Of a stretch of DNA of 64,000 nucleotides, positions 14,941-17,430 are shown piece after piece. The translations under genes were made by a program, and so were the position numbers. Where the stretch lies: assembly GCA_051648645.1 (NCBI GenBank), contig JBOFFP010000003.1, positions 224,001-288,000 of the forward strand, written 5' to 3'. The notes below the pieces were generated by a model. It worked only from the letters and a program-made list of their open reading frames with translations. It ran no database searches and was not told the DNA's origin. Every line of letters starts with the position of its first letter. Position 1 is the stretch's first letter. This DNA comes from Candidatus Rhabdochlamydia sp. Lineage in GTDB: Bacteria > Chlamydiota > Chlamydiia > Chlamydiales > Rhabdochlamydiaceae.

Positions 14941-14990
14941 AGCTTATGCTAGTTTCTATTTTTAGCAAGCTAGCATAAGTTTTAATTTTT
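14941..14990. terminator. Bidirectional terminator between convergent genes
   Basis: AGCTTATGCTAG / CTAGCATAAGTT stem with T-rich flank. Confidence 0.6.
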
Positions 14991-15908
14991 TTATCCTTTA
15001 AGACTAGAAGAATTGCTCCTAAAAGGATCAAATTCTGCTATCTTATCAGCTTTTCTCTTAAGATCATCAGCTGTATTGCTTATTTGGTTTTGATTATCTT
15101 GTGCCATTTCTTTTTGGATAGTTTCCTTACTAGCTTTAGCTTTCTCTTGATCTGCTAAAGATTGACTTACAAGGTTAGCTCCTTGCCCTATTCCACTTAG
15201 CCCTTGAAATCTATCTGCTTTGGCCTCAATTAAGTTTTTCTTAACTTCATATTCCCTATTTTCTTTCTCAATAAGCTTCTCTGCTTTTTTTTCAGTTATT
15301 TTGTTCTGAGCATTTGCCTTTTCTGCCAATTGAGCCTCTGTCTGCTCTTCTGGTTTTGTTTGTTTACAAGACAATGATTCTTCCGCATCGTAGAAAATTT
15401 CTTCTTCTATTTCATCTAATCCAGATCTAACAGGATCGTCAAGGGCTTCTACTTTTATCGTAATATCAGAGCTTTCTAAAGATAAGTCTCCTTCCTTTAG
15501 TATGTTCTTATTGATATCTTCTAGATGACTCTCGCGTGCTTTCGTTACTTGAGCAAGTTCTGTTGCTTTTGTACATCCAGCTACACCTTGAGCAATTCCT
15601 GCTCCGGCAAAAACGGCCCCACCTGCTAATTGCAAAAGACCGGCTTTTGCAGTTTCATCAGCACTATTAAAACCAGCTTTTATGGCTGCACGGCCTAATT
15701 CACCTCTTACTAAGCTAAGTTTTTCATACACCCCTATAGTCGTACTAAAAAACATCCAGGTTATAACCGCAGCCTTAGCCTGCGTATTAGTAGAAGGATC
15801 ATTAAAGAGCTTCTCTATAAGATCTTCTACATGACTCTTAACAATCGGATCTTGCTTATTACTCTTAATGGTGGAATCTTGATTATTGTTGGAATTATCA
15901 ACGTTCAT
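14991..15908 (-). CDS. Putative T3SS minor translocator (CopD/IpaC-like)
   Basis: Single Gly/Ala-rich hydrophobic segment (LLQLAGGAVFAGAGIAQGVAG), coiled coils, QGLSGIGQG...A.QE.AKA pattern typical of translocators. Confidence 0.5.
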   Translation of the reverse strand: MNVDNSNNNQDSTIKSNKQDPIVKSHVEDLIEKLFNDPSTNTQAKAAVITWMFFSTTIGVYEKLSLVRGELGRAAIKAGFNSADETAKAGLLQLAGGAVFAGAGIAQGVAGCTKATELAQVTKARESHLEDINKNILKEGDLSLESSDITIKVEALDDPVRSGLDEIEEEIFYDAEESLSCKQTKPEEQTEAQLAEKANAQNKITEKKAEKLIEKENREYEVKKNLIEAKADRFQGLSGIGQGANLVSQSLADQEKAKASKETIQKEMAQDNQNQISNTADDLKRKADKIAEFDPFRSNSSSLKG

Positions 15909-15909
15909 A

Positions 15910-16425
15910 TTATTCCCCTTGTTTTTTAATAATTTTTAAAGTTTTCATGTAAATGCTTATAATGGGTAGTATAAGCATTAAAGGCTTAGCCAAGAGAGGC
16001 TCTATCTGTTTATTGAAAACAAGTTTTGTAAGCTTCTGTTTTGCTAGGTTTAGCATTTTATCTAGCTTTTCTTTCTTTTTTTGAGTAATGCTGTTCTGCT
16101 CTCTTATTATATTAAGCTCCTTGAGGGAGGCACAGAGCAAACCTGCTAATTCTGAGTCAACCAGCTCATCTTGTTTGCACTTAATTATAAGGAGTTTCAT
16201 TTGTACAATTATTATAGGAAATTGAAGAAATATTGCTTGTAATTGGCTAAGAGAGAGTTCGTGTAGGAAAATCTTCGTAAACTCCTGCATGGTTTGTTCT
16301 GAGATTTGCTCATCAAGAAGATCTTCTAGAGATACTTTTTCAAGCATTTGGTCTGTTTGCTTTATAAATTCTGGACTAACCCGAATTTTTGACCTGTGAT
16401 TAGGCTGAGCTGGCAATGCTGTCAT
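15910..16425 (-). CDS. Hypothetical protein, paralog of the N-terminal half of 24776-25885
   Basis: LDKMLNLAKQKLTKLVFNKQIEPLLAKPLMLIL aligns with LSNTLDALKEKVTDLINNKQVEPEIGNVLILFL. Confidence 0.6.
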   Translation of the reverse strand: MTALPAQPNHRSKIRVSPEFIKQTDQMLEKVSLEDLLDEQISEQTMQEFTKIFLHELSLSQLQAIFLQFPIIIVQMKLLIIKCKQDELVDSELAGLLCASLKELNIIREQNSITQKKKEKLDKMLNLAKQKLTKLVFNKQIEPLLAKPLMLILPIISIYMKTLKIIKKQGE

Positions 16426-16686
16426 AAGACGCCCTTGTTTTTAATTAACTTTTATCTATTTTCAGAACCACCTTTATATTAACTGTTGACTTATTCTTGT
16501 TTATTTATATTAACATGATTAAATCATAATTAACAATTTATATACTCTTAAATACTTATATAATAAAACTGAATTGTCTAGAGAAATTACTTGCGGATTT
16601 ATTTTTTTTCTTTTGCTTTATCGAGAAGAAGATTTAGACGATATGATCTTACAGATGTAAGATTCCATCTTTAGATAAAAGAAAAT

Positions 16687-16725
16687 AAAAAAAACCCAGC
16701 CCCCACGCTGATAATGAGGACTGGG
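16687..16725 (-). terminator. Intrinsic terminator (minus strand)
   Basis: CCCAGUCCUCA / UGGGGGCUGGG 11-bp stem with two G-U pairs (valid only on minus strand) followed by U8. Confidence 0.8.
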
Positions 16726-16776
16726 AGCAGAATTTGATCCTTTTAGGAGCAATTCTTCAAGCCTTAAAGGATAAAA
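16726..16776. repeat. Inverted copy of the 3' end of gene 14991-15908
   Basis: 49/51 identity to reverse complement of 14989-15039; plus strand reads AEFDPFRSNSSSLKG-stop; both differences synonymous. Confidence 0.92.
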
Positions 16777-17430
16777 CACTAACTATCCTACCAAGGAGTC
16801 AACTTGATAGCATAAAGATAATATATGCATATTTTCTTAAATTAACTTTAACACCACAACCAAACAAAATCAACATTAAATTTTTCAATTAGTATTATTT
16901 TTGTAAATAACAATGTAATGTAATTCGTTTTATTTATAAAAATAGATGGAATTAGATAATTAATAAAAATTAGCGCATAGAGCACTCAGTGTGCTCTGTG
17001 CTTTAAAAAACACGTAATGCTGCATGGAAAAGAAGCAGAGCGAAAAGAAGAAAAAAAACACTGATTACTCTTTTACAAGAGAAAAAAGGTGTTAACTTCT
17101 TGAAGTCAAAAATAGTGATGCCCCAGCATAGAAAAATGGAAGACACGAACAATCTAAGAAAAAGAGTACAAGCCATCCTTATAGGGACAAGTTGAAAGCC
17201 GAGAATCCATGATTCTAAATCCAATTTATCCTCTCATTGTTTGATATGGCAGATAAGTTCATTTTGCATAGCATTAGAAAGGCTGAAGACATCGCGAGTG
17301 AGCCCTATGCAGCTCGCAGAAACGGTGAAAAAAGAAAATCTACGAGTTCATTGTGTCCAAAAAAAAGCGGCAATATCACTCCTAAATAATCCTTCAATTC
17401 GTATACTGGCTAGTCCAGTAAGAGGTAAAA

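Follow-up and report, generated by a model that had tools for sequence, protein, structure and literature searches.

The subject of this analysis is a short orphan copy of a gene end in Candidatus Rhabdochlamydia sp. (assembly GCA_051648645.1), located in a 64,000-nucleotide (nt) stretch of contig JBOFFP010000003.1 (positions 224,001 to 288,000 of the forward strand) that is referred to below as the window and supplies the coordinates used throughout. The minus strand of the window carries a cassette of two genes, the upstream member encoding a protein of 171 amino acids (aa; 15910-16425) and the downstream member a protein of 305 aa (14991-15908), the latter belonging to a small family restricted to the genus. 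Ahead of these genes lies a promoter and 5'-leader block (16497-16620, minus strand; promoter-like site at 16551-16523) that is common to a paralogous cassette elsewhere in the genome (C4) and to orthologues in the genus; its upstream edge, at 16620, is also the end of cassette homology. The cassette has its own 3' hairpin, a palindrome at 14940-14982 situated between the convergent 305-aa and 99-aa genes and retained in the closest metagenomic locus (L024). The orphan lies outside this unit, at 16726-16776, and is an inverted copy of the last 15 codons and stop codon of the 305-aa gene.

A repeat search reproduced the match described in an earlier note on this DNA: the arms, at 14989-15039 and 16726-16776, are 51 nt long, complementary at 49 of 51 positions (96%) and spaced 1686 nt apart, with a longest perfect run of 33 bp, and the next-longest inverted pair between 13000 and 19000 is 41 nt at 73%. 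Read on the minus strand, the first arm is the end of the 305-aa gene, comprising one further base, 15 codons, the stop codon (14991-14993) and two bases past it, and is where any antisense RNA would pair. The second arm, the orphan, has its coding sense on the plus strand, such that a minus-strand transcript across it is antisense to the first. The two mismatches, at 15003 and 15006, change TCT to TCA and AGT to AGC; serine is encoded on either side, and both are thus synonymous, as had been claimed. Since the plus-strand frame of the orphan is closed by an in-frame TGA (16715-16717), the orphan encodes nothing by itself, and no plus-strand open reading frame (ORF) of at least 40 aa ends at 16775. 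When a 171-nt query spanning the orphan was compared with the 1.67-Mb genome, only three places matched, namely the orphan itself, the 3' end of the 305-aa gene and the 3' end of the C4 paralogue (82%), indicating that the repeat is not a product of chance.

Directly abutting the orphan on the minus strand is an intrinsic terminator (16687-16725), composed of a hairpin (16725-16695) followed by eight T residues (16694-16687). The hairpin comprises 12 pairs, 7 of them G-C and, by the reading adopted here, 3 of them G-U, around a loop of 7. On the plus strand the G-U pairs turn into C-A mismatches and the hairpin lacks a T run after it, in agreement with the earlier observation that this terminator works on the minus strand only. 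A genome scan (35.5% G+C) found 20 terminators of such quality. The possibility that the hairpin is a repeated element was considered and rejected, as it matches only itself in the genome with up to six substitutions allowed. The minus strand of 16680-16850 folds better than 199 of 200 shuffled sequences (z = -4.3), an effect that derives largely from the terminator. No Rfam family reached its gathering score in the window; over 16400-17450 a single sub-threshold hit (18.6 bits against 50) was taken as noise, and a tRNA and tmRNA search returned none.

Upstream of the orphan on the same strand is an AT-rich spacer of approximately 200 nt (16777-16979) with weak promoter-like sites only, such as that at 16907-16880, which agrees with the consensus at 9 of 12 positions. 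Across 3 kb, 11 promoter-like sites were counted, compared with 9.6 +/- 2.6 in shuffled sequences, and no convincing promoter emerged, in line with the previous remark that no strong promoter is visible; the CUCCUU motif noted at the same time is present on the minus strand at approximately 16797-16792. Beyond the spacer lies a gene for a hydrophobic small protein of 73 aa (17003-17224, minus strand), preceded by a GAGAGGA ribosome-binding site. This gene is considered real because it has a paralogue (C8) at 81% at the amino acid level and open-frame homologues in five of the eight other genus genomes, although the 73-76-aa protein has no family match. A hairpin immediately after its stop codon (16980-16998, minus strand) has no adjoining U run and is thus either a weak terminator or an element that stabilises the 3' end; at the corresponding position the C8 paralogue carries a hairpin that differs but keeps its pairing. 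The 73-aa gene ends 227 nt upstream of the orphan, on the same strand, and because its hairpin is not followed by a U run the gene is a realistic, and on the basis of this layout the likely, origin of any minus-strand transcription through the orphan. The adjoining 250 nt (16989-17238) are likewise duplicated: a 250-nt duplicate carrying the 73-76-aa gene, 88% identical, links window 16989-17265 with G000:C8:40964-41449.

A search of sequencing runs found no run with half of the sampled words, the best share being 0.28. One run recorded as RNA (X20, share 0.07) yielded contigs covering parts of the 305-aa, 171-aa and 73-aa genes, at a depth that is uninformative with regard to absence, strand or ends; no contig of this run lies over 16398-16988 and one ends at 16989, the depth being too low to show absence.

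The orphan and the gene end among relatives

A related strain, approximately 95% identical to the window, is represented by contigs from three runs of three studies (X1, X2 and X3), and these show the same layout in the same orientation. In X1 and X3 one contig each (5890 nt and 5301 nt, respectively) is collinear across both arms, whereas the contigs of X2 bridge each arm separately. Since independent contigs from the three runs agree, the layout is not an assembly error, which had been put forward as one way in which the repeat might prove spurious. Divergence between the strains is unevenly distributed. The stretch from the leader through the terminator to the orphan (16340-16788) has 3 differences in 449 nt, and 17059-17300 has none in 242 nt, apart from one 1-letter gap; there are 5 in 254 nt at 16105-16358, 7 in 175 nt at 16819-16993 and 25 in 533 nt at 15544-16076, and the segment at 15101-15247 is more than 15% diverged.

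Comparison of the gene end itself across lineages bears on which letters are ancestral. In the first arm the related strain has G at 15003, T at 15006, C at 15008 and T at 15022, the first two of which are the letters of the window's orphan. The gene end of L024 agrees with that of the related strain, plus one further change, and the TCA AGY codons of the orphan are also those found in most family members. The orphan of the related strain differs from that of the window at no more than three positions. By parsimony, the orphan represents the ancestral gene end, with the window's gene end having changed twice, both times synonymously, and that of the other lineage twice, to Tyr and Ala. Because the orphan has the gene-end letters of the related strain, L024 and the family, it appears to have been frozen in its ancestral state while the gene ends drifted independently in each lineage. 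No concerted evolution or compensatory change between the gene end and the window's orphan was seen in the related strain, L024 or the family codons; the co-variation of repeat and gene end that had been suggested as a check was thus not borne out, the gene end having changed at 2 + 2 positions while the orphan kept the ancestral letters.

The C4 paralogous segment is homologous to the window cassette from 16620 down to 14223. This edge places the orphan and its terminator 67-156 nt outside the duplicated unit, and upstream of the C4 copy there is a divergent gene, with no counterpart of either the orphan or the terminator. When 22 loci were compared with themselves for inverted repeats, the 51-nt pair was present only at the window's own locus. 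The orphan copy was not found in the eight other species of the genus, either by this self-comparison or by searching with the gene end, and the question of whether related genomes keep the repeat, also raised previously, is answered in the negative at this distance. The last 66 nt of the 305-aa gene matched only full-length family gene ends at E < 0.01 in nine genus genomes, although the sensitivity of this query was limited, as some known gene copies were missed. A family-wide search with 16621-17000 of 61 genomes (including the window's own, and two of the same genus) gave only short matches, of no more than 62 nt and with E values of at least 5.5e-4, none of them over the orphan or terminator. 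A metagenome scan added three loci, of which the closest, L024 (68% identity at the amino acid level), is on a 1288-nt contig that stops short of the orphan position; the other two, L025 and L026, have no inverted repeat.

A different arrangement was observed in another species (G007), in which a cassette of 142-aa, 295-aa and convergent 106-aa genes (L023:5685-10766; G007:C1, approximately 1221.7-1226.8 kb) is orthologous to that of the window and is flanked on both sides by an insertion sequence of 1140 nt, the two copies being inverted and 100% identical. The 337-aa protein of this insertion sequence has an HTH_38 domain and a weak match to rve (integrase core), an IS30-like architecture. 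The whole resembles a composite transposon or an invertible segment built on the orthologous cassette.

Origin of the orphan and competing explanations

The reading rated most likely, although not proven, is that the orphan is a neutral duplication scar without a selected function, left recently, and in this lineage only, when part of the cassette was locally duplicated in inverted orientation or rearranged, and a rough probability of 0.5 is assigned to it. According to this reading, the last 15 codons and stop codon of an ancestral allele would have been left, inverted, just outside the promoter block of the cassette. One route would be that the cassette was duplicated head to head in inverted orientation and that a later deletion, with one endpoint at the G+C-rich hairpin, spared only the last 51 nt; alternatively, a template switch could have occurred at this hairpin. 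G+C-rich hairpins are hot spots for template switching and deletion, and with either route the neat junction between orphan and terminator can be mechanistic rather than functional. The orphan now lies between the small membrane-protein gene and the strong terminator, which shields the cassette promoter from upstream read-through. Moreover, read-through from the 73-aa gene would passively make an RNA tail of approximately 50 nt antisense to the stop region of the 305-aa gene, and the relic reading is compatible with passive antisense transcription of this kind.

Gene fragments of this sort are not rare in the genome, in which 152 repeat pairs were counted, and 33 ORF fragments (30-200 nt, at least 88% identical) have an intergenic twin, some of these 33 pairs lying at contig ends or deriving from transposase genes. 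In addition, the flank downstream of the orphan is faintly collinear with the downstream flank of the gene, with a score of 17 that was reached by 4% of 200 shuffles. The relic reading is also favoured by the narrow range of the copy, its place beyond the edge of the conserved unit, its failure to co-vary with the gene end, the duplicated state of the adjoining 250 nt, promoter-like sites at the level of shuffled sequence and the lack of an Rfam match. Several observations nevertheless weigh against a relic without function. The flank homology is weak, only mononucleotide shuffles were used, and the score of the upstream flank was reached by 22% of shuffles. One edge of the copy coincides exactly with the foot of a rare strong terminator, oriented such that the antisense strand would enter the RNA, and base-pairing small RNAs are typically built in this way. 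The other edge of the copy is only 2 nt past the stop codon, and both mismatches between the arms are synonymous. The low divergence over 16340-16788 (3/449 differences, as against 7/175 in the next spacer and 25/533 in the gene) could reflect constraint. Finally, sequence alone cannot show absence of function.

These points bear chiefly on the first of the explanations offered in the earlier note, a functional antisense RNA, which is considered possible but doubtful. Such an RNA could be transcribed from a weak promoter of its own within 16790-16910 or, more plausibly, could be the 3' tail of the 73-aa mRNA, ending at the terminator. Approximately 50 nt would pair with the stop region of the 305-aa mRNA, and the duplex would be a substrate for a double-strand-specific ribonuclease, a cleavage step familiar from antisense control in general. 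The mRNA would thereby be cut from its 3' hairpin (14940-14982), resulting in lower expression, or else ribosomes would be blocked at the stop codon. In its evolutionary form, which is held with equally little confidence, the proposal is of a newborn regulator, in which an inverted copy of the stop region came to lie before a terminator in the tail of the 73-aa transcript, expression of which would then throttle the fast-evolving, secretion-related 305-aa gene by way of an RNA duplex of roughly 50 bp.

Besides the 49/51 complementarity, the predicted co-folding energy argues for this explanation, being -126.1 kcal/mol compared with -39.1 and -36.8 for the two RNAs alone (-75.9), a gain of approximately 50. 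The duplex energy of the orphan RNA with the 3' end of the C4 paralogue was also calculated, but the structure has large loops and was set aside without interpretation. A strong terminator directly follows the antisense stretch, and the minus strand of 16680-16850 folds well (z = -4.3), albeit largely through that terminator. A real gene, that for the 73-aa protein, lies upstream on the same strand with a hairpin lacking an adjacent U run; the layout is kept in the related strain, with low divergence over 16340-16788; and base-pairing small RNAs are established in Chlamydia, IhtA being an example (PMC4355289, PMC3469542). However, there is no convincing promoter, the sites being at the level of shuffled sequence, and no Rfam family match in the window. 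The copy was not found in the eight other genus species and is confined to one species lineage, no compensatory change links the orphan with its target, the C4 paralogous cassette has no comparable element upstream, and the genome has many similar fragments for which no such reading is made.

The second explanation in the earlier note, an invertible cassette, fares considerably worse and is regarded as improbable. Here the arms would allow homologous recombination to flip the 1.7-kb segment occasionally while preserving the protein end. The arms do bracket the whole cassette, their mismatches are synonymous, and a perfect run of 33 bp is enough for rare RecA-type exchange; the inverted 1140-nt insertion-sequence copies around the G007 cassette further suggest that the locus is prone to rearrangement. 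However, one orientation only is present in the window and in the X1, X2 and X3 contigs, bearing in mind that contigs hide rare variants, and no loose ends at 15039/15040 or 16725/16726 were present among those listed. A Pfam scan of 9 + 50 window ORFs found no invertase or integrase, the only transposase-like gene among them (PDDEXK_2; 34808-35776) lying 18 kb away. Since the promoter block (16497-16620) is inside the segment, a flip changes no link between gene and promoter, and both arms encode the same residues. Furthermore, the arms are not homogenised, as would be expected under frequent exchange. A last and highly improbable alternative, in which read-through of the terminator gives an mRNA whose far 5' leader, containing the orphan, pairs with its own 3' end to form a protective or silencing loop, draws on the fact that a single read-through transcript could contain both arms on one strand, with the terminator as a potential attenuator, but the terminator is among the strongest in the genome, a conserved promoter lies downstream of it, and no relative or paralogue has such a leader.

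The cassette proteins and neighbouring genes

The earlier note described the 305-aa gene as CopD-like and a type III secretion translocator, a label that could not be confirmed. The protein combines a conserved hydrophobic segment rich in Gly and Ala, at residues 74-111 or thereabouts, with an acidic middle part, a long helix towards the C-terminus, predicted at 206-291, and a C-terminal tail that is conserved. In a sample of 41 genomes, the family was present in the window's own genome and in all eight other genus genomes, and in none of the 32 genomes from outside it. When a profile built from 11 members was searched against 1.84 billion proteins, 19 matches were obtained at E <= 0.001, all of them unnamed. 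The 305-aa protein has no Pfam or NCBIfam match, none of the 11 family members matched YopD, SctB2 or IpaC_SipC at E <= 1, and the family profile had a best E value of at least 0.39 against the PDB. Set against these negative profile searches is a language-model resemblance only, with ESM Atlas feature scores of 0.92-0.94 to clusters of VopD2, EspB, YopD and IpaC/SipC, while the Atlas recognition score of the protein, 1885, is below the 2300 reached by 91 of 100 known-family proteins. An AlphaFold model was too poor to use (mean predicted local distance difference test score 45.5). The translocator identity is consequently treated as a lead from modelling and not as a finding. The window does carry a chlamydial type III secretion cluster, with CdsD domains, a type III secretion ATPase, YscO-like and FliN-type proteins, a kinase and a secretin.

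The C-terminal 15 residues, which are those duplicated in the orphan, are the most conserved part of the family, and their codons vary at synonymous sites between members, a pattern that points to conservation of the gene end at the level of protein rather than RNA. A 42-aa database protein (P0015) consists only of the conserved C-terminal 42 residues of the family, and may be a contig-edge truncation or an orphan gene end in another genome. Elsewhere, the 305-aa gene is hypervariable between near-identical strains, against a background of approximately 1-4%, which suggests diversifying selection or recombination. Within it, the region 15290-15620 has 40 differences in approximately 315 nt, with neighbouring DNA at 0-4%. 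The nucleotide alignment with L024, which extends over the 305-aa gene, the 3' portion of the 171-aa gene and the hairpin downstream, varies in mosaic fashion, with 55-96% identity per 51-nt block.

The 171-aa protein encoded upstream has no match to a tetratricopeptide repeat (TPR) or other family, and no signature of a class II chaperone adjacent to the family gene was detected. Its gene is found upstream of the family gene in only some relatives, and is missing in several. A clade of six loci (L014, L007, L008, L009, L026 and L025) is without the upstream gene for a 160-170-aa protein but has kept the promoter block, and the proteins of this clade start like the N-terminus of the 160-170-aa protein (...QILEK..S motif); a deletion may have fused the two genes in the clade.

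The convergent 99-aa gene (14615-14914, plus strand) is within the duplicated segment, and a homologue occupies the corresponding position in G007. The region of this gene (14603-14930) is replaced in the related strain, with 353 unlike letters in place of 326. Further afield, small proteins that have paired hydrophobic segments together with coiled coils, and no family matches, are encoded in series at 11144-13924 and 19298-22942, and it may be guessed that these are of the inclusion-membrane type; within the first series, 11144-11795 (in two frames) and 12509-13150 form a near-duplicate pair resembling a frameshifted paralogue. A 148-aa ORF at 18361-18807 matches only the C-terminal third of a beta-lactamase model (216-311 of 329), and is likely to be a gene fragment.

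Comparison with known systems

A literature search returned no work on this locus or on orphan copies of gene ends in chlamydiae; the closest parallels lie in the following known systems. Gene remnants, the short pseudogene fragments that duplication and deletion leave behind in the rearranging genomes of intracellular bacteria, resemble the orphan, which is a frameless, lineage-specific fragment of an intact gene, lies beside another duplicate and has dozens of similar fragments in its genome; the orphan differs in that its edges are unusually neat (stop codon plus 2 nt at one end, the foot of the terminator at the other) and that it is still 96% identical to its parent. If the orphan is such a relic, then it is of modest interest, as a further sign that this lineage reshuffles the neighbourhood of a fast-evolving and possibly secreted protein. 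The invertible segments of fimS, hin and the shufflons are driven by site-specific recombinases. As at these loci, inverted repeats bracket a gene segment in the window, although here no recombinase gene turned up among the ORFs scanned, the segment contains its own promoter and one orientation was seen.

Should an antisense RNA prove to be made and functional, the comparison would be with base-pairing small RNAs encoded beside their targets. The type I toxin-antitoxin pairs tisB/istR-1, shoB/ohsC and zorO/orzO are systems of this kind, in which neighbour-encoded RNAs share a short inverted duplicate with the target. The window has in common with them an antisense stretch followed by an intrinsic terminator, near to the target and without overlap. 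For RNAs of that class both promoters and transcripts have been mapped, and their pairing, over some 6-25 nt, is with 5' leaders or start regions, whereas the putative pairing here is of approximately 50 nt at a stop codon, in a tandem rather than a divergent arrangement. With GadY and gadX the locus shares the feature that the antisense RNA would meet the 3' end of the target mRNA. GadY, however, is encoded opposite its target, in cis, while the copy described here is 1.7 kb from its own. The known small RNA of this phylum is the chlamydial IhtA (PMC4355289), and an antisense RNA at the present locus would be a first candidate for the control of a secretion-related gene by RNA beyond the well-studied Chlamydia species, as well as a rare, datable example of a bacterial regulatory RNA arising from a copy of its own target.

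With respect to such an origin, the nearest counterpart is in plants, in which microRNA genes are born by inverted duplication of their targets, miR163 being an example (PMC5388894). The orphan would likewise be a young regulator candidate derived from an inverted copy of its own target. The plant genes depend on a eukaryotic hairpin-processing pathway, and the parallel is therefore one of mode of origin only; on those terms, if the newborn-regulator explanation were true, the locus would provide a bacterial parallel to plant microRNA genes born from inverted copies of their targets.

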